A model generated the notes under the pieces. The model worked only from the letters and a program-made list of their open reading frames with translations, was not told the DNA's origin and did no database searches. 64,000 bases of DNA from a virus, in the UHGV virus genome UHGV-0289908; one strand, written 5' to 3'. Of the stretch, positions 11,089-59,234 are shown piece by piece. Each line of letters starts with the position of its first letter. Position 1 is the first letter of the stretch. The position numbers were made by a program, and so were the translations under genes.

Positions 11089-14000
11089 TTATCTAATCTT
11101 AGGGCTAGAGAAGCAGTATAGAGAAGCAATGTTAAAGTCTTCTTCCTCTTCTTTTGCCTTATTTTCGTGTGTCATAATATACCAAATCATATAGACAAGT
11201 GCCGAGTAACGGTCTTTGTCAATCGACTTGGAATTACGTTTTACCGTCAGCTTCCCTCCATTTAGCTGTTCAAGACTTAAGTTAGCTATCTCTTCGATAA
11301 GTAGCTCTGTCTGAACATGAGGGAGCACTGTGCTCTTTAAGAAGTCTTGGTCTGAGTTGGCAACTACGTTCTGGTCTACTTTCTCAAGTAGCTGTAGCGT
11401 TCCATTCTCAACTAAGTTCATAAAGTTAACAATAATGTCAGTATTCAGACCTTGAGCCTGTAAAGCCCAAACACATTTTAATGCTTCTGCTTCGTCTGAC
11501 TCATGTTCTGTATTGATTGTGTCGAACGCAATTAACTCTTCACCTGTTATCGGGTCAATGTGAAGTTTCATTATCTCGTCAAGTAGTCCTACGCCTAATC
11601 CGTTAATATCTATGACAACGGTTACAGCTTTGTATAGCTTCTGTAGTCGCTTAACTGCAATGGCTTGCCCAGTGAAGTTTGTGCCGTTAGGCAGGTTGAC
11701 AATGTTGACAATCTGAATATGATTAACCTTGTCTTTTTTATCTCGTTTAACCTTACCTACTACAATAGAGGTCTGGTTGTTGTTCGTCTTTGTAGAGCGA
11801 GCCACATCGACTCCAATATAGTATTCGCTCTTCCCGTCAGACTTTAGCTCTGCCTTTGGAAGAGTTCGGATGTTGAATAGCTTATTTAAGTCGATGATAC
11901 ATGAGTCGGACGAGCCCACCCAACGGGATTCGTAGTTAGTTGCGAAGAATGTCGGAGATAGTTTCTCCTTCTTGGCAAGTAACTGTGAACGTGTCTCTCC
12001 ACGTCCATACTCGCAGGCAAGCTCCCAAGAGCTACCCAATACAATTTTACCTTTTAACTCTGCCATCTCTTTGACCATTGCTAAACAACGCTCATACTCA
12101 GTGTTCTTGAAGTATGCTGTTGTTAAGAAGTGGATTTGACCATTCATTTCACAAGGGTCTACTTGCGGATTGTAACCAATAGTACGACGAGGTACGTTGA
12201 CGATTGGTTCAAGGGCATCAGAGAAGACGAAGTCGTTAAGTAAGGCAGCCTCTTCCATCATCAAACGATGGCGACGCTTACCCTTACTTGACTGTGCATT
12301 GGCAAGAGTGCTGATAGTACTTCCACTTGTGAAGTGAATCTCGGCATTATCTTTTGAGAATTGTGGCTTACCTACAATCTCCGCTCCGATAAGAGGGAAG
12401 AATCGCACAATCTCACTGTGTTTCTCTTCAACTAATCCTGCGGCTGCTTGCATGGTCTGAGCCGACATAGATAGGTTGATATTTGGATAGAGAATAGCTG
12501 TTACATAGAGTGCTAACAACTCTGTAAATGTATTGTGACTAACTAATCCATTTGACACAAATGAATGAGTGTTGTCTAATGACAAGTCATACACATGAGC
12601 CTTAGAATCTTTAATGGTCTTAATCTTTGAATAGAAGTAATTTTCACACTGCAAAGATTTAAAATGCTCACAGTGTTTTGCTTCATGAAAGCGTTCATGA
12701 TTTAACATTTGGTTTAATTTTTTATAAGTGAATAAACCACCTTTGTTTGCCACTTGATATAGAGGATGACTTGATTTATTAACATTCTCCCCTATTGATT
12801 CATAGAACTCTCTAATCTTAGACTGCTGATTTGGAATAATGTCTTTTATGGTTCTTCCTTGATACTCTTTGCAGCGTTGTTCTAACAATTCTTGTTTTCT
12901 TTGACAAGAGAATCCTATTTCATCTCTGAATTTTAGTATGTTACTTCCCGTGATGGTAATAATGTAAGATTTCGTTTGATACTGTTTGCTTATCTTTGTT
13001 CGTCTGTTTGAAATAATTCCCAAGTTCAACAATAGTGTTTGAACCTGTTTAGACATTTTTTCAGAAGCTGTGCAGAATGAAACAGCTCTGCTCTCCACTC
13101 CACCGTCTGTATCAAATAATCCTTGCAAACATTTCACCACATATTTTTTCGGTGCTTCTAAAATAATGTTGGGGATAACCTTGGTAAAGGCATCTGACTG
13201 CGACAAACCAAGTTGTCTAAAGTATTCACGAACATATTTGCCGTTGACGACATAATCTATGCCTGTTTTACGCTGTTTAACCTCTACTCCTATGACATTG
13301 TTCATAAAAGAGTGGTAGCGTTCCACCATATCTTGGTCTTTTGATGTAAAGAGGATGATGTTATCTCTTGTCAAGCAGCCATCTCCTAAAAGATAGCCAA
13401 TTATCAGAGCTAAGTCCTCAGTTAATTCCGTCGGAGTGTTGCATTTGTTTTTTTCAATTTTCCATTTAGAGTCTCCACCAAAAGAATTTAACCACGAGTG
13501 CATATCAAAAGTCAATTTGGTTCTGCTACCCCAAACATTATCTCCTCGGCTTGTGATTAAATAATCTCCGACATGTAAATCCTCTGTTCGTTTCCAGTCA
13601 ATATTTCCATCTGTTGTCATAACTAGCACGGGGTGGTTTAACGAAGGTTCAATTTCAATACCTTCCTCGGTATATATTTTCTTTGTGTCCTTATATCCAC
13701 TATACACCCCTGCAATGACATTCTCCATCTGTTTATGACGATTGCTCACTGTCATTTGTTTAGGAATTATGTATGTTTCAACATTATCATCTTGATAATT
13801 AAAGTACGACCCAATCTCTTTAACTCCCTCGTTTGTTAAAATTAATGTATCGCCAGATACACATTTTCCATATCCACGTGGGAATACCCCGTAGACAGAA
13901 GCGAAACGGACTAGAACACGAATGAACACTCGTTGGTCTAAGTCGAGTCGGATACCCCCTGTCTCGGGCGTAATTAGGTCGAGAAAGAGGTCGGGGAAAA

Positions 14001-14139
14001 AGCGAGCCCACGAAATGAACTCTACCCATTTATCTAAATTCTGTTGAAATTTATCTCCATCTGGGTTAGAATAATATGGTATCCCAGTTTTTGGATTGAT
14101 TACTTTTTCAATAATCTGCTTGGCTTCTTCTTTATTCAT
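11089..14139 (-). CDS. terL: terminase large subunit containing an in-frame intein
   Basis: Extein reads ...FPRGYGK|TFTELLALY... giving Walker-A GYGKT once residues 93-536 are removed; C-terminal nuclease-like region present. Confidence 0.85.
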   Translation of the reverse strand: MNKEEAKQIIEKVINPKTGIPYYSNPDGDKFQQNLDKWVEFISWARFFPDLFLDLITPETGGIRLDLDQRVFIRVLVRFASVYGVFPRGYGKCVSGDTLILTNEGVKEIGSYFNYQDDNVETYIIPKQMTVSNRHKQMENVIAGVYSGYKDTKKIYTEEGIEIEPSLNHPVLVMTTDGNIDWKRTEDLHVGDYLITSRGDNVWGSRTKLTFDMHSWLNSFGGDSKWKIEKNKCNTPTELTEDLALIIGYLLGDGCLTRDNIILFTSKDQDMVERYHSFMNNVIGVEVKQRKTGIDYVVNGKYVREYFRQLGLSQSDAFTKVIPNIILEAPKKYVVKCLQGLFDTDGGVESRAVSFCTASEKMSKQVQTLLLNLGIISNRRTKISKQYQTKSYIITITGSNILKFRDEIGFSCQRKQELLEQRCKEYQGRTIKDIIPNQQSKIREFYESIGENVNKSSHPLYQVANKGGLFTYKKLNQMLNHERFHEAKHCEHFKSLQCENYFYSKIKTIKDSKAHVYDLSLDNTHSFVSNGLVSHNTFTELLALYVTAILYPNINLSMSAQTMQAAAGLVEEKHSEIVRFFPLIGAEIVGKPQFSKDNAEIHFTSGSTISTLANAQSSKGKRRHRLMMEEAALLNDFVFSDALEPIVNVPRRTIGYNPQVDPCEMNGQIHFLTTAYFKNTEYERCLAMVKEMAELKGKIVLGSSWELACEYGRGETRSQLLAKKEKLSPTFFATNYESRWVGSSDSCIIDLNKLFNIRTLPKAELKSDGKSEYYIGVDVARSTKTNNNQTSIVVGKVKRDKKDKVNHIQIVNIVNLPNGTNFTGQAIAVKRLQKLYKAVTVVIDINGLGVGLLDEIMKLHIDPITGEELIAFDTINTEHESDEAEALKCVWALQAQGLNTDIIVNFMNLVENGTLQLLEKVDQNVVANSDQDFLKSTVLPHVQTELLIEEIANLSLEQLNGGKLTVKRNSKSIDKDRYSALVYMIWYIMTHENKAKEEEEDFNIASLYCFSSPKIR
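12532..13863 (-). mobile_element. intein (444 aa) with LAGLIDADG homing-endonuclease domain inserted in terminase P-loop
   Basis: Starts with Cys (CVSGDTLIL), ends with His-Asn followed by Thr; internal LAGLIDADG-like motif IGYLLGDGCL. Confidence 0.75.
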
Positions 14140-16612: not shown

Positions 16613-17487
16613 TTAAAATCACTCCTCTTAAAATCAAAGTCTCAAAACCATCTACCTTAAAGCAGATAAACAGTTTTGAGACTAGGAAGTCTCTATTGTG
16701 CAACACCTTGAGCTTCTTCTACCCTTAAGGCATTGTCTTATTGGTTTGGACAATCAAGCCCATTTCATGTATACTTCCAAGAAATCAATCTTGAAAGGCT
16801 AGTTGACGTTGCGTCTTCCGTTGAGCTTTATTTATTTTACCATTGTCACGCTCTATGACAACAAAGTGTGACTTGTTCCACTATTCTTTATTTTAAGCTA
16901 GTCTTAATGGCATAGACTAGAATCATTATAGGAAACAATGGGTAGTAACACAAACTTAATCGCCCTACCACCCATCCAAAACACTAGGTTTTATAGTTTA
17001 CAATGGCTTCAACTTTTAATTTGTTCCGACACTAGATAAATGTGAGTTGACAACACAATCGGGATTCTTCCCTCGCCAACATGGAGAACTTGTTCCATTA
17101 AGACTATTTCAAGTGTCACACAATTACAACATAGCCCTCTGTGAGTAAGCACAAGTAGTGTGGTTATTGTAACTTAACGTGCCTGTGGATAATGACCTAG
17201 GACGGCTTGACAGTGGTTGCGACCCTCGTCTGACAAGTCTTACACTCCCTATGTCCAATAAACAACTACGCTAGCTTAATCGCCCGTAGGTTCTGCGTGT
17301 ACAGTTAGAACACCTCACGACTACAGTAGTTATATTTTCTGTCGCACTCTGCAAGCGACTGTCTAGCCCATATGTCTAGCATTAATGATGACAATAAGAC
17401 TATGGATTGTCGCTATACACGTAGGTCATCACCCCTACGTATGCTCCCCTCTAGCCAAAAGCATGGTGGTCTAATGACCATGTTAAT

Positions 17488-18935: not shown

Positions 18936-20042
18936 CTAGTAGTTCATTCCTTCAACAGAATAATTATACTCGTCTAAGAACGTATTCAAGTCATCAAGTG
19001 AAGATGGCACTGCCACTGCTCCACACTTGACCTGTTCCATTGCTTCGTCAACTTTTGTGATGGTATCTTCTGTTAAGTTTGGATTTTCCACTGGTAATCC
19101 AACACCATCCGCTTTGATATCCATTACAATCGTTTCTCCACCTTTGAAAGTGTTGTTTGCATGGTTTTCCACATGCTCATATGAAGCTCGTCCTAAATTC
19201 TTCATGGCAGATGTCAAGATGACCGAACTACCATTGGAAATCAATCCTTCTGAATATTGGTCGATGTCAACTCCAACAATGTAAACGCTATCTCCAGACT
19301 CTGCTCGGCTCTTTGCTTCATTAATAGCTCCAACTCCGACTCCACCTGCTGCTTGCATGATAATGTCTGCTCCTTTATCATACATTGCTCCTGCAATAGC
19401 CTTTCCTGCGTCTACATCTGTGAATGTACCTTGATATAAATAGTCAATCACTTCAACATCTGTTCCGTAGATTGCATTGGCATAAGCCACACCTGCTACA
19501 AATCCCCATCCTAATTTTTGAACCGCAGGAACTTTCATTCCTCCAATGAATCCAACTTTGCCCGTTTGTGATTGTAAAGCTGACGCAACTCCCGTTAAGA
19601 AGCCTGCTTCATGTTCTGTGAAGAATACTGAGACGACATTGTCTCCAACTTCATAGTCCGACCCCACTAATGGAGTTCCATCAATCAATACAAAGTTGAT
19701 GTCTGGGTAAATGGCTTGGGCTTGCCCTATGGCTTCTTCAAACTTGAATCCTGCCACAACAATGACCTCATTGCCTGCCATTACCAGATTATCAATGGCA
19801 TTCATATAGTCTTGAGTTGACTCTCCGCTTGGTTGGATATATTGAATTTCTACGTTCTCATTATCTGCTTGATATTCCAATATTCCTTCCCAAGTCCCTT
19901 GGTTGAATGATTTGTCATCAATAGTTCCAGAATCTGTAACCATCCCAACTTTTAATGTTGACTCAGATGGGGCAATCTCTTTTTTGCTACAACCGATTAG
20001 TGTGAATGCACACACTGCCAATAATAGTGTAAACTTTTTCAT
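18936..20042 (-). CDS. BMP-family (PnrA/Med-like) substrate-binding lipoprotein
   Basis: Start at MKKFTLLLAVCAFTLIGCSKKE (lipobox LIGC) after GGAGGAAGA RBS; periplasmic-binding-protein-like sequence typical of nucleoside-binding BMP lipoproteins. Confidence 0.7.
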   Translation of the reverse strand: MKKFTLLLAVCAFTLIGCSKKEIAPSESTLKVGMVTDSGTIDDKSFNQGTWEGILEYQADNENVEIQYIQPSGESTQDYMNAIDNLVMAGNEVIVVAGFKFEEAIGQAQAIYPDINFVLIDGTPLVGSDYEVGDNVVSVFFTEHEAGFLTGVASALQSQTGKVGFIGGMKVPAVQKLGWGFVAGVAYANAIYGTDVEVIDYLYQGTFTDVDAGKAIAGAMYDKGADIIMQAAGGVGVGAINEAKSRAESGDSVYIVGVDIDQYSEGLISNGSSVILTSAMKNLGRASYEHVENHANNTFKGGETIVMDIKADGVGLPVENPNLTEDTITKVDEAMEQVKCGAVAVPSSLDDLNTFLDEYNYSVEGMNY

Positions 20043-20061
20043 GGGTGTTCTTCCTCCTCGT

Positions 20062-20283
20062 TTACATAAAGCAGTCGTCAGTTGCAACTTCTTCGTCTAA
20101 ATCTTTCTCAGCTTTTGCTTGGAATGATAATACTCCGTGTTTGTTATCAGCGTTTGCTAATAAATCTTGGATGAAGCAAACTCCTTCATCTTCTGTTTCG
20201 ATTGTCATGTCGTCAACATTTAAAGTCCCAGTGACTTTGATGGTATGAGTTTCGACAATCTTTTCTTGAATTGATTTTGCCAT
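20062..20283 (-). CDS. small acidic protein
   Basis: 73-aa ORF with AAGGAGG RBS. Confidence 0.5.
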   Translation of the reverse strand: MAKSIQEKIVETHTIKVTGTLNVDDMTIETEDEGVCFIQDLLANADNKHGVLSFQAKAEKDLDEEVATDDCFM

Positions 20284-37741: not shown

Positions 37742-37846
37742 TGACAGAAAATAAAGAGTCACTGTTTTATACAATTCACAATATCTATTGTGGGTTGCAA
37801 TAAGGCTGTGAAGCTGAATTATATCTGTACGAAGGGTGGAATTGTC

Positions 37847-43754: not shown

Positions 43755-43785
43755 CGTTGACTTCAAACACAACTTATGATATTAT
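43755..43785 (+). promoter_or_regulatory. early promoter
   Basis: gtcGTTGACTtcaaacacaacttaTGaTATTAT. Confidence 0.55.
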
Positions 43786-43806
43786 AATATCGAAGGAGGT
43801 CGTAAT

Positions 43807-43959
43807 ATGAAGATTACAGGAATTGAAATCACTCGCAAGTCTCGTAAGATGAGCAAGGAAGAGTTACAGGAACACATGAAGAACAGTCGTCAAGGAGTTG
43901 GAGTGCAAAGAAATAAAAAGAAGTATACACGCAAACAAAAACACAATAAAGAATGGTAG
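43807..43959 (+). CDS. 50-aa highly basic peptide
   Basis: GAAGGAGG RBS; Lys/Arg-rich. Confidence 0.4.
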   Translation: MKITGIEITRKSRKMSKEELQEHMKNSRQGVGVQRNKKKYTRKQKHNKEW

Positions 43960-43983
43960 TTAACACAAGAAAGGAAGAATGAT

Positions 43984-44214
43984 ATGCACATTCGAGGAAC
44001 AATTTTAGTTACGTATCAAGAATGGATGGAATTCCTAGAGTGGTACAAAAGGTATTCAAACATTAGAGTATTAAATGTCAAGGATAAGTCCCCATTCAGA
44101 TACATTATTGACAAGAAGGATAAGTCATATGTGGCTTATTCTCATGGTCAGCGCCAAACTGTGACCTATGGAATCTATCAACCATGGTATGAACGCTATA
44201 TGGACAGTGAATAA
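43984..44214 (+). CDS. small early protein
   Basis: 76 aa; AAAGGAAG RBS. Confidence 0.5.
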   Translation: MHIRGTILVTYQEWMEFLEWYKRYSNIRVLNVKDKSPFRYIIDKKDKSYVAYSHGQRQTVTYGIYQPWYERYMDSE

Positions 44215-44241
44215 AATGCTAGACTACAGAGAGAGGAGGGG

Positions 44242-44622
44242 TTGATATTGACTATTGAAATATCAGAAACGACAGGGCATGTAGAAGTTGCCACCAACAT
44301 TGAAGGCAAGGTTGTTATGATTGACAAAGAATGTGTAGACCTTGTAACATGGTTTAACAATTATGGTTTAAAGACAAAGTATTCTTGTCGTGGAGGAGAT
44401 GGACAAAACCGTTTCTATATCATGTTTCAAGACGACACAAAAGACTCAGACATAGACCGCCTATTGACACTCTATCATGATAAGTTTGGATTCATCCCAA
44501 CAAAAGGGAGATTTATTAAGTGGAGCAGATGGTTTGCAGGTGGTGTTGTTCCTAATTGGATATATGAGAGTTTTTCAGTTGAAGAAGCCAATATTGATTA
44601 TAAAAAGTTTACGTTGTTGTAG
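44242..44622 (+). CDS. early protein (TTG start)
   Basis: 126 aa; GAGGAGGGG RBS. Confidence 0.5.
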   Translation: MILTIEISETTGHVEVATNIEGKVVMIDKECVDLVTWFNNYGLKTKYSCRGGDGQNRFYIMFQDDTKDSDIDRLLTLYHDKFGFIPTKGRFIKWSRWFAGGVVPNWIYESFSVEEANIDYKKFTLL

Positions 44623-44670
44623 AGATTAAAGTAAAACAGCATTTTACAGACATTTAGTAGAGGTGATATT

Positions 44671-45063
44671 GTGAATATTAAAGCGTTTATCCCACTAAGT
44701 CTCACCCTCCTGTGTTTGGGAGGATGTAACACTTATGAGCGATATAATGAATCAAATTATTTAGGAGCAGTCGTCACTAATGTGTACGGAGAAAGCTACA
44801 TTGAACACAGTGGGAGCGGCATTGGTCGCACCAGTTATAGTGTAAATGAATGTCATGTTACAGTCACCTATGAAGACGGATATTCTAAAACATTCACTGA
44901 GAATATTGAACCAGTCTATTGCTATAAGTTGCAAGTGAATGACTGGGTTGATGGTTGGACAAATGAAGAATATCGAAAGAATATCGAAACACAAGAGGTA
45001 GAATTGATTAACATGACAAGACATATAAACATTGCACAGGAGATTTCAAAAAGATTGAATTAG
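44671..45063 (+). CDS. lipoprotein (GTG start)
   Basis: MNIKAFIPLSLTLLCLGGCNTYE lipobox; AGAGGTGA RBS. Confidence 0.55.
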   Translation: MNIKAFIPLSLTLLCLGGCNTYERYNESNYLGAVVTNVYGESYIEHSGSGIGRTSYSVNECHVTVTYEDGYSKTFTENIEPVYCYKLQVNDWVDGWTNEEYRKNIETQEVELINMTRHINIAQEISKRLN

Positions 45064-45105
45064 AGCAATAGAAACAAGGATTGCAAACAGAACATGAGGT
45101 GTGAT

Positions 45106-45441
45106 ATGTGTAAATTTTGTAGTGCTTTATTAGAAAATAAAAAGGTATACTGGCAAGAGAGAAGCACAGTGGCTGATGACAACTTCTGTGAAACGGTCTG
45201 TAATAATGACTGTGATGGATGTCATGGGTGTGACAAAAGAGAATTCACGCTGACACCATCTATTATTAACGGAAATGTTTATGTGTCTGTTGACTACTAT
45301 AGGGAAGCATATGAGACAATTATTTACCCATTTTCAGAACTTATGCCATTCTCATACTGTCCATTTTGTGGAAAACAGATTTCAAAAAGCATAGAGCCGT
45401 TTAATGAAAATGACCATAGATATTCAGTAGAGGATGTGTAA
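45106..45441 (+). CDS. Cys-rich early protein
   Basis: ~111 aa; CKFC...CNNDCDGCHGC...CPFCG. Confidence 0.5.
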   Translation: MCKFCSALLENKKVYWQERSTVADDNFCETVCNNDCDGCHGCDKREFTLTPSIINGNVYVSVDYYREAYETIIYPFSELMPFSYCPFCGKQISKSIEPFNENDHRYSVEDV

Positions 45442-45484
45442 ACAAGAGTAGTTAGACCTTGTAACAATTTAGGAGGGATTAGTT

Positions 45485-45679
45485 TTGAACAGTATATTTT
45501 TAATTGTTGCATTGCTATCGGTAATATTGGCTATTTATTGGAGATGTAAGTCTGAATATTATAGATGTTTGGCAAGGGACTTTAGTTGTAAGTATTCAAC
45601 TCTTGAATATGAAGTTAAATTCCTAAGAAGAAAGTACGAGGAATTTAAAGAAAATGAAAGTGACGGTAAACAAATCTAG
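45485..45679 (+). CDS. small N-terminally membrane-anchored protein (TTG start)
   Basis: 64 aa; AGGAGGG RBS. Confidence 0.45.
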   Translation: MNSIFLIVALLSVILAIYWRCKSEYYRCLARDFSCKYSTLEYEVKFLRRKYEEFKENESDGKQI

Positions 45680-45710
45680 ACTTTTTATTAACGTTAAGGA
45701 GTGGTTATAA

Positions 45711-45893
45711 ATGAAAGTGAAATGCCCTCATTGTGGTAGTATTAATATTTTAAATATTTATAGTGGAGATAGCATAGAGGAAGATATTTCTTGTGGAATT
45801 AATATTGTAGAATATAACTGTGAGTGTGAAGATTGTTTTGAGTCTTTTGATTGTATGATTCATTATGCTATTTCTGATGTAGTTTACAAATAG
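45711..45893 (+). CDS. small Zn-ribbon protein
   Basis: 60 aa; CPHCGS...CECEDC; AAGGAG RBS. Confidence 0.5.
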   Translation: MKVKCPHCGSINILNIYSGDSIEEDISCGINIVEYNCECEDCFESFDCMIHYAISDVVYK

Positions 45894-45925
45894 CAACTAA
45901 AAATAATTTTTTATGAGGTGATAAA

Positions 45926-46084
45926 TTGTATAAAGTGCTGTGCGTAAGCGATTATGATTGGGATTATTTAATTACAATAGGAAGTGAATATCAAGTTGTG
46001 GATGATTATAAAGATGTAGTTGGTGTATTGATTTACGACAGAGTGATTTATATGCCAAAATACTTATTTAAGAAAATAGATTGA
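45926..46084 (+). CDS. 52-aa protein (TTG start)
   Basis: GAGGTGA RBS; ends in AAATAAAATTAAAATTTA spacer motif. Confidence 0.35.
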   Translation: MYKVLCVSDYDWDYLITIGSEYQVVDDYKDVVGVLIYDRVIYMPKYLFKKID

Positions 46085-46124
46085 TAAAATTAAAATTTAT
46101 TTATATATAGGGGGGGTTGATAAT

Positions 46125-46286
46125 ATGATTGAAGAATTATTTGCATATACAGATATTGATGATGATTACATTCTTATTTACAAAAGTTTAGAAGAACATT
46201 ACATTATGGTAAATGGTCAAACAGTCGAATTACCAATAGAAGTGGTTCAACAAATTATAAAGATTCTTAGTTATAAAAATAATTAA
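46125..46286 (+). CDS. 53-aa protein, paralog of 47268-47429
   Basis: MIEELFAYTDIDDDYILIYKSLEEHYIMVNGQTVELPIEVVQQIIKILSYKNN vs VSEELFEYTDIDGDYILIYKSLEEYYIMVNGGTVELPIEVVQQMVKVLSCKNN. Confidence 0.55.
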   Translation: MIEELFAYTDIDDDYILIYKSLEEHYIMVNGQTVELPIEVVQQIIKILSYKNN

Positions 46287-46322
46287 AATACAAATTTTAA
46301 AAACAAATTAGGAGGAGTTATT

Positions 46323-46838
46323 ATGAAATATTATACATCAGACTTACATTTGAATCATGCTAAAATTATTACACTGTGTGATAGACCATTTAAAGATGTT
46401 AAGGAAATGAACGAGACAATTATTAACAACTGGAACACTCGTGTTAAAAAAGGTGATATAGTATATATTTTAGGTGATGTTGGACTTCCAAAATCAAAAC
46501 AGGATGTTATTGAAGTGTGTGATATGTTAGAGACATTGAATGGTGAAAAGATTTTAGTTACAGGAAATCATGATAAAGAATTACTAAAACATTCAAGATT
46601 CCATGCTTGTTTTTCAAAAGTAGTTCCATATGCAGAAACAAAAGACAATGGCAAAAAGGTTTGTATGTTCCATTACCCTATCGAAGAATGGAATGGATAT
46701 TACAAAGATTCAATTCACCTATATGGTCACGTTCACAATTCGGATGTAGGATTAAAGGATATTAAAAACCGTTATAACGTTGGTGTAGATGTTAATGATT
46801 TTGAACCTAAAACATTAGAAGAATTAATTAACAAATAA
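46323..46838 (+). CDS. small calcineurin-like metallophosphoesterase
   Basis: DLHLNH, GDVG, GNHD, GHVHN motifs; AGGAGG RBS. Confidence 0.7.
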   Translation: MKYYTSDLHLNHAKIITLCDRPFKDVKEMNETIINNWNTRVKKGDIVYILGDVGLPKSKQDVIEVCDMLETLNGEKILVTGNHDKELLKHSRFHACFSKVVPYAETKDNGKKVCMFHYPIEEWNGYYKDSIHLYGHVHNSDVGLKDIKNRYNVGVDVNDFEPKTLEELINK

Positions 46839-46865
46839 AATTAAATTTTATGAGGAGTGGTTGAC

Positions 46866-47018
46866 TTGCGTTGTGAGAAATGTGAATCTCTATGCGAAGA
46901 AGTTAGCAAAAACAACGAATTGCATGAAAGTTTTTATATAACTCATGAGCAATGGGTTGTTACGGTTGTTAAATTCAAGTGTTTGAATTGTGGACATGAG
47001 TTTACAGAAGAGTTTTAA
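46866..47018 (+). CDS. 50-aa Zn-ribbon peptide (TTG start)
   Basis: CEKCESLC ... CLNCGH; GAGGAG RBS. Confidence 0.35.
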   Translation: MRCEKCESLCEEVSKNNELHESFYITHEQWVVTVVKFKCLNCGHEFTEEF

Positions 47019-47051
47019 GAAATAAAATAGAACATTTATGAGGTGGTTAAA

Positions 47052-47231
47052 GTGGAAGAGTATTACAAAGTATTTTATGAAGAAGATAAAATCTTAAAGT
47101 GTGCAAGATATAGTTACGAAGATGAATGTAAAGCAATTAAAGTTGCAGATATGTATTCACAAAAAGAAAATGTAACAAACGTTCAAGTTTATAAATATGA
47201 AGTAGTTAGTACATTAATCAAGCAGTATTAA
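47052..47231 (+). CDS. 59-aa protein, paralog of 47892-48071
   Basis: VEEYYKVFYEEDKILKCARYSYEDECKAIKVADMYSQKENVTNVQVYKYEVVSTLIKQY vs MEEYYKVFYREDGILKCTRYGYDDEYEAQNVAEYYSQKDGIMDVEVHKYTITSELIRKY. Confidence 0.55.
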   Translation: MEEYYKVFYEEDKILKCARYSYEDECKAIKVADMYSQKENVTNVQVYKYEVVSTLIKQY

Positions 47232-47267
47232 TAAAATTAGATTTTATATGGGTTTAGGGGTGATGGT

Positions 47268-47429
47268 GTGAGCGAAGAATTATTTGAATATACAGATATT
47301 GATGGTGATTATATTCTTATTTACAAAAGTTTAGAAGAATACTACATTATGGTAAACGGTGGAACAGTTGAATTGCCAATAGAAGTTGTTCAACAAATGG
47401 TAAAGGTTCTTAGTTGTAAAAATAATTAA
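47268..47429 (+). CDS. 53-aa protein (GTG start), paralog of 46125-46286
   Basis: ~75% identical to 46125 ORF product. Confidence 0.5.
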   Translation: MSEELFEYTDIDGDYILIYKSLEEYYIMVNGGTVELPIEVVQQMVKVLSCKNN

Positions 47430-47464
47430 AATTAAATTTTAAAGGTATTAAGGAGAGGTTACTA

Positions 47465-47680
47465 ATGAGATGCAAGTTTAGAGTAGGAAGAAAATTAAAA
47501 ATTGATGATGATATGTTTATTATTGCAATGGTGGATTCTAAAAGGGAAACCTTATACAATTTGATAGATATTAATACAGGTGAGCGATGGTTTGCCTTTG
47601 CACTTGACCAACATAGGTTTCTTCTTGCTATACAAAAATTAGAGAAAGATTACGGTTTTGAGTTTGTTGATAGTAAATAA
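47465..47680 (+). CDS. small protein
   Basis: 71 aa; AAGGAGAGG RBS. Confidence 0.5.
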   Translation: MRCKFRVGRKLKIDDDMFIIAMVDSKRETLYNLIDINTGERWFAFALDQHRFLLAIQKLEKDYGFEFVDSK

Positions 47681-47718
47681 AATTAGACTTTTTATAAACA
47701 TTTAAGGAGGGAAGATGA

Positions 47719-47856
47719 ATGAATTTAACGAAAGAGGAACTTAAATTAATTATGGAAGCTATAAGACGTTTGTCACCAACGTATATAGTTAATTTTTATA
47801 GTTGGGAAGAGCTGGGAGTATTAGCAGATAAGCTGAAACAAGAGTATAATAAATAA
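47719..47856 (+). CDS. 45-aa peptide
   Basis: AAGGAGGG RBS; not in ORF track. Confidence 0.35.
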   Translation: MNLTKEELKLIMEAIRRLSPTYIVNFYSWEELGVLADKLKQEYNK

Positions 47857-47891
47857 AATTAAATACTTATAAACATTTGGGAGTGATTAGA

Positions 47892-48071
47892 ATGGAAGAA
47901 TACTACAAAGTTTTCTATCGTGAAGATGGAATTTTAAAATGTACCCGATATGGATATGATGATGAATATGAAGCTCAAAATGTTGCAGAATATTATTCTC
48001 AAAAAGATGGTATTATGGATGTAGAGGTTCACAAATACACAATTACTAGCGAACTTATAAGAAAATATTAA
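47892..48071 (+). CDS. 59-aa protein, paralog of 47052-47231
   Basis: GGGAGTGA RBS; see paralog alignment. Confidence 0.55.
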   Translation: MEEYYKVFYREDGILKCTRYGYDDEYEAQNVAEYYSQKDGIMDVEVHKYTITSELIRKY

Positions 48072-48097
48072 TTATAGGAGGATAATATAACAAGACA

Positions 48098-48298
48098 ATG
48101 AAAATAGGTGAATTTAAGGTCGAATGCGTGTTTTACAACAAAAAGCAAAACATAAGAATACCAATGTGTCAAATATTTAGCGATAAGGCTCATGTTGATT
48201 GTTGGGTAGAATGGTTAAAAAACCAAGATGAAATAGTTACGATTACAGTAACAAAACAAACAAAATACGGTGAAGAAACAATATTATATTGGTGGTAG
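48098..48298 (+). CDS. small protein
   Basis: 66 aa; weak RBS. Confidence 0.4.
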   Translation: MKIGEFKVECVFYNKKQNIRIPMCQIFSDKAHVDCWVEWLKNQDEIVTITVTKQTKYGEETILYWW

Positions 48299-48341
48299 TA
48301 AATAAAATCAGAATTTAACTGACATTTAAGGAGAGGTCGAT

Positions 48342-48512
48342 ATGAAAGTTTATATTGTTGTGGAATATAGAGGAGTATCTCTTGAATATGTTGAATCTAC
48401 AATCATTAAAGTTTTCAAAAATGAAAAACAAGCACATGATTTTGTAAGATTAAATGAAAACGAATGTGGGTATCGAGAATGGTTGGAAGTTGAAGAGTTT
48501 GAGTGCGAGTAA
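48342..48512 (+). CDS. 56-aa acidic protein
   Basis: AAGGAGAGG RBS; preferred over overlapping minus-strand ORF 48450-48710. Confidence 0.45.
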   Translation: MKVYIVVEYRGVSLEYVESTIIKVFKNEKQAHDFVRLNENECGYREWLEVEEFECE

Positions 48513-48540
48513 AAAATAGACTTTTATAAGGAGTAATAGT

Positions 48541-48714
48541 GTGGAAACGTTATGGATACAAGTTAAGGTTGATAAAAGAAATGGTGAAATTGTCATGTAT
48601 GATAGTTCACTTCCAAAAGAGTTTTTAAAGACAGAAAAACAACATGAAGAGTTTTTTGAATTGTGTATGGATTTTAAAAATAAATTACAAATACTTAAAG
48701 ATAAAAGCAAATAA
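48541..48714 (+). CDS. 57-aa protein (GTG start)
   Basis: AAGGAG RBS 5 nt upstream. Confidence 0.3.
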   Translation: METLWIQVKVDKRNGEIVMYDSSLPKEFLKTEKQHEEFFELCMDFKNKLQILKDKSK

Positions 48715-48748
48715 GGTCAAAATTTGATGGACTTGTAGGAGGAATAAT

Positions 48749-48898
48749 ATGGTTAAGTTAAAAGAGATTCAAAGCATTATTAGTAGCCTAGATGGTGACT
48801 ATAATGTAATTATCTGTCCAACAGATGGAGACGGTTCTAACGATACTATTATTGAAATAAATATTTCTCAAGGAACAGTTTACATTAAGTGTGAATAA
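48749..48898 (+). CDS. 49-aa protein
   Basis: AGGAGG RBS 7 nt upstream of ATG. Confidence 0.4.
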   Translation: MVKLKEIQSIISSLDGDYNVIICPTDGDGSNDTIIEINISQGTVYIKCE

Positions 48899-48930
48899 AA
48901 GAATCATTTTACAGTATGAAAGGAGAAGTA

Positions 48931-49611
48931 AAAGTGTACATCATATACTGTCCAAAATGTAAACATGAGAATAAGGTTACTGATGATGAACAAAATAAAA
49001 TCAAGAGTTATTACCCATCTTTAGGTGATGGTTGGGGTGCTCGTATTAATTTAGTTGATTGCCCTATTTGCAATTATCAACTATGTGGGTTAGCTCCATT
49101 ATTGGTTGGCGACAAAAATGATGAAGTTCATTTAAAAGATAGAATTGATGCCTACGTCAGTCCAACAGAGCATTATTATTTAAACGATAATGAAATTGAA
49201 CAGATACTAGAGCGTATTGAAATTGAAAAAGGAAAACATAAATCATTGAAAGAATTAAGAAACAAAAATAAATTAGAAGATTCAATCATATATGCCAAAC
49301 GCAAAAATGAAATTCCACATAATGTGGCACAGACAATAAAAGATGACATATTTCATGGTTTTATAGAGCCATTGGGGGCGACAACTTTAAGTCGCTTCTA
49401 CTTACGTGAGGATGAGGAAATGCCTAATCCAAGAGTTTGTCAAATTCTTTCAGTAGGAGAGCTACTAGACCAGTTACAAAACATACCTAAAGACTATGCT
49501 ATTTTAACACAACATGATTTCAATAAGAAGTATTCCGAACCAATAGTAAGAGTATTGAATGATTCAAAAGAAGTGATTATTCTTGATTGTGGAGTTGACA
49601 AAAATGACTAG
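48931..49611 (+). CDS. protein with N-terminal Zn-ribbon (GTG start)
   Basis: ~226 aa; CPKCKHENKV...CPICNYQLC; AAAGGAG RBS. Confidence 0.55.
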   Translation, partial: KVYIIYCPKCKHENKVTDDEQNKIKSYYPSLGDGWGARINLVDCPICNYQLCGLAPLLVGDKNDEVHLKDRIDAYVSPTEHYYLNDNEIEQILERIEIEKGKHKSLKELRNKNKLEDSIIYAKRKNEIPHNVAQTIKDDIFHGFIEPLGATTLSRFYLREDEEMPNPRVCQILSVGELLDQLQNIPKDYAILTQHDFNKKYSEPIVRVLNDSKEVIILDCGVDKND

Positions 49612-49780
49612 ACCAAAGCCGAAGTATTTTGAATATCATTGCAACAAGTGTGGAAATCTGCTACACCCTATGAACCATAATTATTCACGATTGAAATTAG
49701 ATATGTCTTGGCAAAACTACTATTGTTATGAGTGCAAACGAGTAATGTATACAGATTGTGGTTGGGATGGTAAGAAATAA
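49604..49780 (+). CDS. 58-aa double CxxC Zn-ribbon protein
   Basis: CNKCGN...CYECKR; GGAG RBS. Confidence 0.45.
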   Translation: MTRPKPKYFEYHCNKCGNLLHPMNHNYSRLKLDMSWQNYYCYECKRVMYTDCGWDGKK

Positions 49781-50002
49781 AAATCATTTTTAAACAAAAA
49801 GGAGTGATTAATATGGCGATTAATGGTTATACAAAAGACGAAATGTAGTTTGCAAAAATGTGTTACCAATTTGCTAGTCTTGGTGTTTATGAACTGTTCG
49901 GAAGAAAACTAACTGTTGATTTAAAATTTATGGATTGATATATGAATTCAAGGTATACTAAAAAGTAATAAAATAACTGTTATAAGTGAAAGGAGGAATA
50001 TC

Positions 50003-50221
50003 ATGAATGGTAAGAGATTGACAATACACATTTTGGGGACGTTGATAGTGTTCGCTACAATAACAATGGCAACATCAAGAGTCTTATCAGAAATTGAACA
50101 AAGTATATTCAGTGAGACAGAAGTCCTTATCATGTTTGGATTTTGTTGTGTGGTGTTAGGGACAGAGCTTAAGAGCTATATAATTGAATATTGGTACTAC
50201 AAATACAACATGGTAGATTAA
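50003..50221 (+). CDS. small two-TM membrane protein
   Basis: 72 aa; AAAGGAGG RBS. Confidence 0.55.
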   Translation: MNGKRLTIHILGTLIVFATITMATSRVLSEIEQSIFSETEVLIMFGFCCVVLGTELKSYIIEYWYYKYNMVD

Positions 50222-50257
50222 AACAATCGTAACAATTTTAAAATAAATACTTAAACA

Positions 50258-50288
50258 TGTTGACTAAAAAGTCAATCTGTGATATTAT
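50258..50288 (+). promoter_or_regulatory. early promoter with dyad TTGAC-N6-GTCAA
   Basis: catgTTGACTaaaaagtcaatctgTGaTATTAT. Confidence 0.6.
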
Positions 50289-56907: not shown

Positions 56908-57810
56908 ATGGACTTAATTCAACGTTTTTTGCGAGCTAAGGCTCATTGTTACACAGAAGATACAACAAAAAGCTATCGAGCAGACCTTGAACAATTTTTT
57001 GAGTTTTTGGCTGAACGTCATGAAACAACTGACCAAACAGTGCTTATTAAAAAGGCAGATTACTCAGAATGTTTGGATTATTTATTTTATTTACAAGACC
57101 GCAAGTTATCTGTTTTTACCATCAATAGAAAACTAGGAAGTGTTACGTCATTGTTTAAGTTTTGTGTGGATTTGGGGCTTATTGCAGAAAATCAGATGAA
57201 GAAGGTAGACCGAAACCCCACTAAACACTTAATTCAAGATAACGATTTTTTAACAAAGGACGAATATGATAAATTGTTCTTGGCAATTCAGACACGACAA
57301 GCTAGACAACCAAATTTTGAATTTACAAAGACCCGTGACCTAGCTTTGTTCTCAATGATTATCTCATTAGGATTGCGTATCACAGAAGCTCGAACACTAA
57401 CATATGACCAAATCGACCTCCAAACTGGACGCATTAGATTGGTGCGAAAAGGATTAAAGGCTCAGACACTTAAGCTAACCAGTCATCTTATAGAATTGTT
57501 GAATGAATACCTTGAGCAACGCAAAAAGGTTCACATTACAGAAGGATTAGAGAATCGAATCTTCCTTACTGCAAATGGGAATGAGTTAACAACAAAAGAT
57601 TGCAACCGTGCCTTAGAACGCTACTGCAAACGAGCAGGAATTAAACAAATCAGCAATCATGACCTACGACATACCTGTGCCACAAATCTAGCTTCACGTG
57701 GAGCTTCAATTAATGATATAAAAGAATTATTAGGTCACAAGCAATTAGCAACGACCAGTCGCTACGTTCATGGGGATTCCTCGAATATTGAAGACCTTAT
57801 TGGATTATAA
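56908..57810 (+). CDS. tyrosine recombinase (integrase/Xer-like) with intact catalytic residues
   Basis: GLRITEAR..., KG, HDLRHTCAT, TSRYVHG (R-K-HxxR-Y pattern); 300 aa; AAGGAGG RBS. Confidence 0.8.
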   Translation: MDLIQRFLRAKAHCYTEDTTKSYRADLEQFFEFLAERHETTDQTVLIKKADYSECLDYLFYLQDRKLSVFTINRKLGSVTSLFKFCVDLGLIAENQMKKVDRNPTKHLIQDNDFLTKDEYDKLFLAIQTRQARQPNFEFTKTRDLALFSMIISLGLRITEARTLTYDQIDLQTGRIRLVRKGLKAQTLKLTSHLIELLNEYLEQRKKVHITEGLENRIFLTANGNELTTKDCNRALERYCKRAGIKQISNHDLRHTCATNLASRGASINDIKELLGHKQLATTSRYVHGDSSNIEDLIGL

Positions 57811-57995: not shown

Positions 57996-59234
57996 TTGGA
58001 AAACAGTATATTTGCTACTCTTAATAGCGTGATTGATACTCATAACAGCGAACAAACAGTAGACTACCTCACCAAACATTTTCGTAGTCATGGACTAAAT
58101 AAAGCAACACCAAGCCTTGTATTTGCCAAAATGGTGAGCTTAGACAAATTGTCTCAAACAGAATTAATCTGTCTATCAGAAGGGTTGTATAGTATTACAG
58201 GAATTGAGAAGATTAACCCTAAAAATCTGTTTGAAGGTGAGGAACTAGAGGTATATCATGAATTACAGGAGCAAACGGATTATTACCCAACAACAATAGC
58301 TGCTCAGAGAGCCCTAGATTATAGGGACAAAAAGGTATTAGATTTTTTAAATGAAACATATGGTAATTATAAGACAAAACACACATACTTTTTTATTTAC
58401 GATTCAAAGATAAGACAAGAAGAAAGAGACAATTCAAAACAATTAGGAGATTTTGACGCAGTTGAAATCATCACCCTAATGCAATCCATGAAGGGGAGCT
58501 TAAGCACTCGCAAGAATGCTCTCTCTTTCGTGAAGAAATATATGAAATGGTATTGGAGAGAGAATCCCGAAGAGAATCCTATGTTGGATATCGAGAAGGG
58601 GACACCGCTAGTTCTAGTCAATGACAGCCATTTATCAAGTAAATACATCCCGATGATGGAACTAGAGGAAGAAGCTAAAAAACTGGTCGTGGCAGAAGAC
58701 AACCCTGTATTTCCTATTGATGGAATGATAGCAACTCTTATTCGTCAAGGGTTGACGGCAGAGGAGGTTGCTTCCCTTAGATTTTCAGATTTTAATTATC
58801 AAACAAATACGGTCAAAATAAAAACAAAAACAAGTGGACTCAAGTTGGTCAAGTTGGATTCCCATGTACTGCATTGGGTTAGAGAAACAGAAGAGGACAA
58901 TCGACCCGTGGGTCATCCACCTATTTATCTAAACATAGTAGACGACCATATTATTCGAGTACCGTCCACAACATATGATGAAAAGAAAGCAGTAGAGAAT
59001 ATTAGAAGAAGATTAAGTAAATTTAAAAATGCAGGATACAGACCACTAAGTGAGAACGTGCTCATTATCAGCAAAAAGATTGACCTTCTTGACAATATTG
59101 TGAAAACAAAAGGTGTTGTTACTAAGGATGATTTTATAAGAGTACAAGAGATGTTCGGAAACAAAGGTTCAAGTTGGTTCAAGATTCGCACTGAATATGA
59201 AGCTGTTCGTGGAGCTAAAAACATTAGGTTGTAG
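57996..59234 (+). CDS. recombinase-like protein lacking catalytic residues; candidate MrpR/YopR-type DNA-binding repressor (TTG start)
   Basis: 412 aa; segment GLTAEEVASLRFSDFNYQTNTVKIKTKTSG resembles start of tyrosine-recombinase catalytic domain but no HxxR or Y motifs; AGGAAGGAG RBS. Confidence 0.45.
   Translation: MENSIFATLNSVIDTHNSEQTVDYLTKHFRSHGLNKATPSLVFAKMVSLDKLSQTELICLSEGLYSITGIEKINPKNLFEGEELEVYHELQEQTDYYPTTIAAQRALDYRDKKVLDFLNETYGNYKTKHTYFFIYDSKIRQEERDNSKQLGDFDAVEIITLMQSMKGSLSTRKNALSFVKKYMKWYWRENPEENPMLDIEKGTPLVLVNDSHLSSKYIPMMELEEEAKKLVVAEDNPVFPIDGMIATLIRQGLTAEEVASLRFSDFNYQTNTVKIKTKTSGLKLVKLDSHVLHWVRETEEDNRPVGHPPIYLNIVDDHIIRVPSTTYDEKKAVENIRRRLSKFKNAGYRPLSENVLIISKKIDLLDNIVKTKGVVTKDDFIRVQEMFGNKGSSWFKIRTEYEAVRGAKNIRL

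Follow-up and report, generated by a model that had tools for sequence, protein, structure and literature searches.

Between about 45.9 and 48.9 kb of the 64,000-nucleotide stretch of virus genome UHGV-0289908 analysed here (the window, taken at its full length), a series of very small genes, or micro-genes, is punctuated by a short AT-rich palindrome (the AT box), and some of these genes occur twice with different cargo between the copies. This arrangement raises the question of what the box does, and whether it plays any part in the shuffling of the genes around it. An earlier reading of the sequence (the original prediction) proposed tandemly duplicated modules whose palindrome might act as a recombination hotspot, an RNase processing site or an attenuator. 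The evidence set out below leads us to favour, with somewhat better than even confidence, a portable, start-associated intercistronic linker that is also the mosaic joint of a pool of micro-gene cassettes shared between phages.

The AT box belongs to a start-associated linker

The AT box is strongly over-represented. As an exact 17-mer with up to three mismatches it occurs 13 times, against 1.7 expected, and a position weight matrix built from aligned linkers finds 12 hits on the + strand and six on the - strand of the window, compared with 2.1 in shuffles that preserve local composition. The six - strand hits are mostly mirror images, and every + strand hit sits in a + strand spacer between 31.9 and 48.3 kb. 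The orientation of the box is always that of the genes, and the box is absent from the structural genes at 1-28 kb. Among the 15 spacers between 45679 and 48934, nine carry a strong box (TAAAAT-TARA-nTTTTA), five a degenerate one and one (48071) none (Table 1). The motif that had been reported at nearly every gene end between 45.9 and 48.9 kb is thus present in 14 of 15 spacers, although it is not anchored to the stop codon, and the sequence given for it in the earlier title is inexact at 47229, which reads TAATAAAATTAGATTTTAT.

We compared 159 distinct spacers, some from the window itself and others from loci reached via the micro-gene proteins, and find the box to be the 5' half of a longer conserved linker of ~30-40 nt (roughly 35). 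The consensus runs TAAAAT-TARA-nTTTTA, an optional WRNACRTT(T), (A)AGGAGG, 7-9 nt and the start codon. Fifty distinct linkers of a long class align nearly gap-free to TAAAATTAAAnTTTTATAnACATTTAGGAGG; A3, A4, T13 and T14 are invariant in all 50, and T1, A2, A5, A10 and A16 are conserved in at least 90%. The box itself is close to a 7-2-7 dyad, in which TAAAAnT is followed by AR and then by the complement.

The position of the box is set by the gene that follows it. In 43 of 89 linkers the upstream gene has its true stop at the TAA of the box itself; in 46 the true stop comes earlier and the box follows, nearly always 1-14 nt further on (for example TAG TAAATAAAAT, TGATAAAAT and TAACAATAGCAATAAAAT). 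The distance from box to Shine-Dalgarno site, by contrast, is bimodal, with a short class at 15-17 nt (n = 20) and a long class at 23-27 nt (n = 58). The box at 31958, which is far removed from any upstream stop (Table 1), immediately precedes the Shine-Dalgarno site of the gene at 31987. The fixed Shine-Dalgarno distance, the displaced stops and the box at 31958 therefore show that the element is start-associated and not, as had been claimed, embedded in the stop region: upstream reading frames merely run into the linker and end at one of its TAA or TAG triplets.

Could AT-rich stop and ribosome-binding context by itself, with no conservation of spacing, produce such palindrome-like strings by chance, so that there is no element at all? 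At ~85% A+T, 5-bp inverted repeats are indeed expected by chance by our own estimate. This reading, the null named with the original prediction, is nevertheless scarcely credible, and we rejected it on the controls. The 18 matrix hits far exceed those in the shuffles, and in distant relatives of similar G+C content the matrix scores 36 hits in 773 kb, compared with 15-25 per 20 kb in linker-bearing loci. In 447 spacers of 41 such distant relatives, neither the T-arm nor the ACATTT word is retained, word counts in the linker set and in the distant-relative spacers being 23 versus 1 for ACATTT and 20 versus 0 for TTTAGGAG. Word order and Shine-Dalgarno distance, furthermore, are kept across unrelated phages. 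A second ribosome-binding "dialect" seen at 31.5-35.5 kb (GGAGGAAWT...ATG) was considered as a vertically inherited type but is not supported, with just 8 of the 447 distant-relative spacers containing it.

The linker lies in a particular genomic setting. Between 30 and 53 kb the + strand is of early type and has strong sigma-A promoters, and the promoter at 43757-43785 is the only TG-extended + strand promoter before 50260, with none inside the array (43785-50260). No terminator-like site was found on the + strand between 43.8 and 50.2 kb. We read the array at 43.8-49.8 kb as a putative single early operon of ~6 kb. Elsewhere in the early region, a pistol self-cleaving ribozyme lies at 31875-31941 (+; Rfam RF02679, 60.8 bits against a gathering score of 34.5), between the genes at 31603-31869 and 31987-32208, and is followed 17 nt later by an AT box and Shine-Dalgarno site.

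A pool of micro-gene cassettes and its joints

Pfam and PHROG families are nearly absent among the micro-genes, which are real genes. The ratio of non-synonymous to synonymous change (dN/dS) is 0.07-0.27 for the pairs in which it could be measured, and the AlphaFold2 model of the 59-aa family, of which 17 members were aligned, is confident (pLDDT 89.8), with a beta-beta-alpha-beta fold that has no structural match in the PDB. Two paralogous pairs frame different cargo, as originally described, with higher identities than first estimated: the products of the two 53-aa genes (53A and 53B) are identical at 44 of 53 positions (83%, not ~75%) and those of the two 59-aa genes (59A and 59B) at 35 of 59 (59%, not ~50%). 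The phosphoesterase assigned to the cargo of copy A is borne out by its Pfam match, and this gene (46323-46838) has different neighbours in the related locus L043. The zinc-ribbon peptide beside it does have two CxxC pairs, although its Pfam zinc-ribbon matches are below threshold.

The apparent tandem duplication differs between siblings. The sibling locus L044 has a single, chimeric 53-aa gene, with the 5' end of 53A and the sequence of 53B from about codon 8 onwards, and the crossover that yielded this single-copy arrangement maps within the 187-nt direct repeat (Table 1). The 53-aa copy of L043 is conversely 53B with the 3' end of 53A. Cargo orders differ accordingly: 53A-171-50-59A-53B-71-45-59B in the window, 53-71-45-59 in L044 and 53A-63-68-69-45-59B in L047. 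From the chimeras in L044 and L043 it follows that the "tandem duplication" is one polymorphic unit of 1,143 bp with a 53-aa gene at either boundary, and that unequal exchange between these two genes added or removed it.

This polymorphism is part of a much wider traffic. The window phage is a large tailed phage, on a contig of ~155 kb from a human-gut metagenome (ERZ919609). Its portal protein shows only ~35% identity to the portals of large siphoviruses of Bacillus, Brevibacillus and Alicyclobacillus. At the DNA level none of 50,697 deposited phage records is related to the phage, and searches of cultured phages with DNA and protein found no close relative. A protein 98% identical to 53A is recorded in 46 blocks of the assembly collection. 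The contigs that encode it represent several backbones: L047, a sibling that matches the window phage at 98% identity over 19.3 kb; a type of 105-125 kb that has DnaB and a xanthine permease (L048, L049, L052 and L060); small phages with Rep, SSB, RecT, YqaJ and RusA (L050, L051 and L053-L056); a 42-kb contig (L057); and L075, a 136.8-kb contig that encodes a ParM-like protein, a thymidine kinase and an RNA ligase. What the non-sibling backbones have in common with the whole window amounts to 0.4-1.3 kb, in the form of single cassettes of 84-100% identity.

Individual cassettes make the point clearly. Between unrelated backbones, the module of 52-aa and 53-aa genes (45899-46301) retains 95-96% identity, all 216 nt of the 71-aa gene recur at 100% identity in the unrelated L048, where the gene occupies a different position, and 48303-48714 is 99% identical in the otherwise unrelated L060, the left end of this block falling at the AT box at 48303. 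The array of L075 is a patchwork of cassettes from nine other loci in different orders. A family map shows micro-gene families with changing neighbours, the 53-aa gene alone having seven different downstream partners, and a single kind of linker is found beside unrelated micro-genes in at least five gut-phage backbones that have no other relationship. The suggestion that cargo between conserved paralogs would vary among related phages is therefore strongly borne out, as cassette exchange at the spacers, in relatives and non-relatives alike. Scans for the linker pattern returned only four IMG/VR contigs and 14 metagenome contigs; the distribution of the linker is therefore narrow.

Two further observations concern the linker-bearing loci. 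Micro-gene arrays of the small phages are headed directly by an XRE/HTH-type regulator of family F44 (198-213 aa) in L051 (6570-7211), L050 (7376-8017) and L045 (550-1146). An ISL3-family transposase occupies positions 1-1085 of L050, at the end of the 38.9-kb contig that holds this small linker-bearing phage, and may mark a prophage edge or be an insertion sequence inside the phage.

Where, then, do the cassettes join? Of the distinct homology-block ends between 43.7 and 50.0 kb, 26 of 35 lie within 10 nt of a spacer, compared with 22% expected (p = 8e-11). Many blocks join at 46300/46301, by the box at 46284..46299, and homology with L047 resumes at 47667, near the linker at 47678..47718. 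At junctions where only the upstream gene is shared, identity stops directly after TAAAA or just past ..AAATTTTA(AA); where only the downstream gene is shared, it extends back 14-31 nt or across the whole linker. Identity ends 3-6, 14-19 or 39-49 nt into the linker. From these variable end points it follows that there is no single crossover nucleotide, which argues against a site-specific reaction of the integron type. Where neighbouring genes are homologous, moreover, crossovers fall inside the genes, as in the 53A/53B chimeras, and on both grounds we rejected an integron-like fixed crossover.

We can now describe how such a linker might work. It precedes most micro-genes of a long early operon that is devoid of internal promoters and terminators. 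It would be a self-contained leader and translation-initiation region, such that a cassette would be expressed wherever in the operon it was inserted. General recombination, by phage RecT/YqaJ-type functions or those of the host, would join unrelated cassettes at the linker because this is the only sequence they have in common; homologous neighbouring genes would instead cross over within the genes, and the 1,143-bp duplication in the window would be one such polymorphism. RecT and YqaJ genes are present in L053.

Several points weigh against this explanation. Exact identity between two long-class linkers has a median length of only 7 nt and reaches 23 nt or more in just 0.3% of pairs. The minimal efficient pairing segment is reported to be 23-27 bp for Red-beta and 31-34 bp for RecA (PMC3945230), and recombination at the linker would therefore be rare and of the microhomology level; efficient homologous recombination via long exact linker identity is on this basis not supported for the long class. 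In addition, selection for intact genes would also leave block ends at gene boundaries, and the array has too few box-less spacers to separate the two effects. Genome-collection scans for a host gave no match. Finally, the invariance of A3, A4, T13 and T14 and the 7-2-7 dyad exceed what an unstructured AU-rich leader would need, which suggests a specific reader of the box; the ribosome, another host factor or a phage protein are candidate readers of the invariant A and T runs. Overall, the data fit general homology- or microhomology-guided recombination together with selection for intact genes.

A third linker class, which lacks the AT box, occurs in L048-L055 and takes the form (A)ATAATCTATGAGGTGAGAG(T/AG)ATG, as in L051 (8526-8557 and 9773-9804) and L050 (8349). 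In small RecT-type phages this class (AATAATCTATGAGGTGAGAG) is common to unrelated gene junctions over 21-29 nt, a shared length that is sufficient for Red-beta-type pairing.

Machines, hairpins and operators as readings of the box

A more specialised reading holds that cassette exchange is actively driven by a dedicated recombination machine that targets the box. Such a machine might be a site-specific recombinase, comparable to the one that acts on integron attC sites, or a homing or nicking endonuclease of the free-standing type, with its cut mended by copying from a second phage in the same cell. Arrays of cassettes that lack promoters and meet at imperfect inverted repeats would suit it, and candidate genes are present: tyrosine recombinase genes lie at 56908-57810 and 57996-59234, and HNH, GIY-YIG and I-HmuI-like endonuclease genes occur in the window and in L048-L051. 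However, the crossover point is not fixed, chimeras arise inside homologous genes, the recombinase genes are ~9 kb away with none seen in the fetched parts of the small phages, and a 16-nt box is far shorter than an attC site. We consider a dedicated machine quite improbable. The hotspot of the original prediction accordingly survives as cassette exchange, but not as a dedicated site, given the variable crossovers, the in-gene chimeras and the ~7 nt of shared identity.

The palindromic appearance of the box invites two readings at the level of transcription, namely that it folds as an RNA hairpin which attenuates or terminates transcription, or that TAAAAT, which matches TATAAT at five of six positions, is the -10 element of an internal sigma-A promoter. 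The six proposed pairs are pairable in 82.8% of cells, but 497 of 500 column shuffles reach the same pairing, and not one compensatory change is found in these pairs. The box core has a folding energy of 0 to -0.5 kcal/mol, the 15 window spacers are no more structured than their shuffles (mean z = +0.17), and RNAalifold detects no structure in the aligned linkers. The G+C-rich stem and U tract of an intrinsic terminator or attenuator are not present at the boxes, and the + strand of the array, as described above, is free of terminator-like sites. For the promoter, a TGn ahead of TAAAAT can be cited in 9 of 89 linkers; this is rare, and -35 matches at the right spacing number 10 of 89, against 13.3 of 89 in shifted controls. 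Hairpin, attenuator and internal promoter were rejected on this evidence, and taken together they seem to us extremely unlikely. Pairing of the T-arm with the Shine-Dalgarno site, or of ACAUUU with the start codon, was likewise rejected, since such folds are not better than those of shuffles.

A further reading is that of an RNase site. On this account the box would be cleaved by an endoribonuclease of host or phage, cutting the polycistronic early mRNA into single-gene messages. The box is AU-rich, single-stranded and intercistronic and often has a lone central G (UUAG|A, UCAG|A), and the pistol ribozyme processes RNA at another intergenic site of the same phage. Yet the central G is missing from roughly half of the linkers, which have TAAA or ACAA centres, and the Rfam 15 covariance models give no match between 43.7 and 50.3 kb, even at E <= 1. 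RNase processing appears very unlikely.

The most serious alternative is that the box is an operator, through which a trans-acting factor with sequence specificity would silence or adjust all micro-genes in concert, with cassette exchange as a by-product. The factor might work on the RNA of each leader, as a translational repressor or an endoribonuclease in the manner of T4 RegA or RegB, or it might be a dimeric DNA-binding protein that forms a roadblock as at mycobacteriophage stoperators. The near-invariant positions and the dyad-symmetric conservation (TAAAAnT, 2 nt, complement) are what such a factor would leave, the box is confined to early micro-gene arrays, the F44 regulator stands at the array heads of L045, L050 and L051, and a long polycistronic early mRNA would be expected to benefit from a common shut-off site. 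Several findings run the other way. Unless it came from the host, the factor would need a gene in every one of at least five unrelated backbones, and the family map contains no protein family common to all backbones. A DNA roadblock would not be expected to keep a fixed distance to the Shine-Dalgarno site, conservation is weaker in the right arm than in the left, with no compensation for the changes there, and no candidate RNA-binding protein was identified. Because of the position-specific invariance and the dyad symmetry, we keep the operator model as an unlikely but live contender to the portable linker.

Relation to known elements and other features of the window

The element resembles several known kinds but belongs to none of the families with which we compared it. 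Promoter-early stem-loops (PeSLs) of T4-type phages are closest in evolutionary role, and the start-associated sequences (SAS) and extended SAS (ESAS) of mycobacteriophages are closest in anatomy. PeSLs are elements of ~100 bp that combine a strong sigma-70-like early promoter with a stable, often G/C-rich stem-loop terminator, and have been proposed as homologous-recombination linkers that let a gene travel together with its expression signals (Arbiol et al. 2010, PMC2839356; Comeau et al. 2014, PMC4122927). A further hallmark of PeSLs is the release of mini-circles when neighbouring copies recombine. Like PeSLs, the linker is a conserved intergenic cassette that flanks small ORFan genes in variable early regions, and indel or replacement joints between close relatives fall within it (the window against L047, L044 and L043, and the block-end test). 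Unlike PeSLs, it has neither a promoter (none of the TG-extended type at 43785-50260) nor a stem-loop, measures ~35 nt, lies inside one operon, and is common to unrelated backbones of a Gram-positive-type host and not only to members of one phage family.

The SAS/ESAS of Cluster K mycobacteriophages are marked by a 13-bp consensus, GGGATAGGAGCCC, located 3-8 bp ahead of the start codon, and by 17-bp inverted repeats whose spacer varies; they are suspected of a role in translation initiation, and, as in the linker, the stop codon of the preceding gene sometimes lies within the repeat (Pope et al. 2011, PMC3203893). The linker shares with them a repeat with a Shine-Dalgarno core directly upstream of the starts of genes of different families, a restriction to non-structural genes and a single orientation. 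Both also have an upstream imperfect inverted repeat that lacks support from RNA pairing, a likeness in kind only, since sequence and spacing differ. The linker consensus, ..ACRTT(T)AGGAGG with the start 7-9 nt further on, has only the AGGAG core in common with SAS, and its AT box is at fixed spacing where the spacer of the 17-bp repeats varies. The host phylum is also different, and SAS/ESAS are limited to one phage cluster and are not described as mosaic joints.

Three other systems are more distant. Stoperators of Cluster A mycobacteriophages such as L5 are 13-bp asymmetric sites bound genome-wide, in early and late operons, by a monomeric immunity repressor (PMC9283540). As with stoperators, there are many copies of a short site in the short intergenic spaces of operons, often at stop codons; in contrast to them, the box is dyad-symmetric, restricted to early micro-gene arrays (it is absent at 1-28 kb) and tied to the Shine-Dalgarno site. 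Integron attC sites measure 57-141 bp and are recombined at one defined position by the adjacent IntI integrase, which is accompanied by an attI site and a Pc promoter. The likeness to integron arrays lies in promoter-less small genes served by one upstream promoter, an imperfect inverted repeat after each, and cassettes found across unrelated replicons. The differences are the lack of an adjacent integrase (the nearest tyrosine recombinase genes are at 56.9-59.2 kb), the ordinary early promoter, the variable junction points and the chimeras within genes. The modular theory of lambdoid phages, finally, proposed short conserved boundary or linker sequences at gene boundaries as sites of homologous exchange between phages. 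Unlike those, the present linker is a single recurring consensus that stands before dozens of genes per genome and contains a ribosome-binding site. Boundary sequences of the modular theory are discussed in PMC2839356.

The coordinates of the linker copies, micro-genes and repeats are collected in Table 1.

Table 1. AT boxes, linkers, micro-genes and associated features, in window coordinates
Feature	Position	Strand	Score or remark
Sigma-A-type early promoter, TTGACT-17-TATTAT with upstream TG	43757..43785	+	Heads the micro-gene operon
Micro-gene array, ~22 small genes	43807..49780	+	Spacers 16-48 nt; no internal promoter or terminator
AT box with ribozyme upstream	31958..31973	+	Score 16.8; ~90 nt past upstream stop, 17 nt past pistol ribozyme
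Degenerate box TAGACTTTTTAT	45677..45688	+	T-arm only (repeat D8)
AT box TAAAAATAATTTTTTA	45898..45913	+	Score 14.1; short class, TGAGGTG directly after
AT box TAAAATTAAAATTTAT	46085..46100	+	Score 12.2
AT box TAAAATACAAATTTTA	46284..46299	+	Score 19.2; TAA is the 53A stop codon
AT box TAAAATTAAATTTTAT	46836..46851	+	Score 12.2; short class
AT box TAAAATAGAACATTTA	47023..47038	+	Score 12.3; 7 nt downstream of true stop
AT box TAAAATTAGATTTTAT	47232..47247	+	Score 12.1; type example of the original prediction
AT box TAAAATTAAATTTTAA	47427..47442	+	Score 16.4; TAA is the 53B stop codon
Complete long-class linker TAAAATTAGACTTTTTATAAACATTTAAGGAGGGAAGATGA	47678..47718	+	Score 16.9; reaches ATG at 47719
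Degenerate box TAAAATTAAATACTTA	47854..47869	+	
AT box TAAAATCAGAATTTAA	48303..48318	+	Score 15.0; 7 nt from true stop TAG
Degenerate box TAAAAAATAGACTTTTAT	48510..48527	+	
Degenerate box TAAAAGAATCATTTTA	48896..48911	+	
52-aa micro-gene, family F1	45926..46084	+	Usual upstream partner of the 53-aa gene
53-aa micro-gene, copy A (53A), family F0	46125..46286	+	dN/dS against copy B 0.27
171-aa calcineurin-like phosphoesterase	46323..46838	+	Cargo of copy A; Metallophos_2 E = 1.6e-6, passes Pfam cut-off
50-aa protein, two CxxC pairs, zinc-ribbon-like	46866..47018	+	Zinc-ribbon Pfam matches below cut-off
59-aa micro-gene, copy A (59A), family F13	47052..47231	+	
53-aa micro-gene, copy B (53B)	47268..47429	+	
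71-aa micro-gene, F39	47465..47680	+	Cargo of copy B
45-aa micro-gene, F40	47719..47856	+	Cargo of copy B
59-aa micro-gene, copy B (59B)	47892..48071	+	
Two-gene cassette, 56-aa DUF7336 gene and 57-aa gene	48342..48714	+	DUF7336 E = 3.5e-7
187-nt direct repeat	46114..46300 (left), 47257-47443 (right)	+	87% identical, spacing 1143 nt

Other parts of the window contain features that deserve mention. Strong early sigma-A promoters on the + strand at about 30385, 33215, 33900, 43757, 50255 and 51068 have their -35 TTGAC within an inverted repeat that extends into the spacer (for example ATGTTGACAGTAAAATCAACAT..TGATAATAT); these repeats could be a PeSL-like combination of promoter and stem-loop, or an operator. 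Further families of repeated intergenic cassettes are found at 32208-32292, 32795-32900 and 33487-33575, and at 35440-35500, 35850-35900 and 37790-37830; one family reads TAATTAGT..hairpin..GCTAATTAATAGCATGAAAAA..TGGAGGAAATTAAAATG and another consists of GTCTACAA..TTGTAGATTG hairpins. Of the two tyrosine-recombinase-like genes, both on the + strand of a 155-kb phage, one is XerC/D-like (Phage_integrase, E = 1.4e-34) and the other has a weak match to the MrpR core-binding domain.

The - strand genes at 1-28 kb include the portal and an intein-bearing terminase. The latter, a terminase-like gene of 1016 aa at 11089-14139 (-), harbours an intein that includes a LAGLIDADG homing endonuclease (Intein_splicing E = 2.4e-16; LAGLIDADG_3 E = 5.3e-20). 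A gene for a PnrA/Bmp-like ABC-transporter substrate-binding lipoprotein at 18936-20087 (-; Pfam Bmp, E = 1.3e-68) adjoins three tRNA genes (Met, Thr and Ser; 17.5-18.8 kb), and a match to the Rfam "6A" small RNA at 16816-16866 (-) is barely above its gathering score (42.5 against 41.2 bits).

The ~35-nt linker provides a sequence handle for a pool of tiny, fast-moving early genes that spans large (105-155 kb) and small (about 40 kb) human-gut phages, with some genes 99-100% identical across unrelated genomes. It extends the ideas of the mobile regulatory cassette, known from the PeSLs of T4, and of the start-associated repeat, known from SAS/ESAS, to uncultured phages of Gram-positive-type hosts, and indicates that a linker with neither promoter nor terminator is able to fill the same evolutionary role. 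An old question, whether linkers guide phage mosaicism or selection merely keeps gene boundaries, is thereby made testable. Scans for the linker could also list accessory micro-genes, such as those for host takeover or anti-defence, that homology searches overlook because most of them have no PHROG or Pfam family.

Beyond this, there is a small chance that a dedicated factor borne by the cassette pool or by the host, whether an endonuclease of the nicking or homing type, a recombinase or a protein that regulates all the leaders, reads the box and makes of these arrays a true mobile cassette system across unrelated large and small gut phages. Such a system would parallel the cassette arrays of integrons while being phage-borne and promoter-less, and its linker would be a search handle for phage accessory genes, probably ones that act in host takeover or anti-defence.

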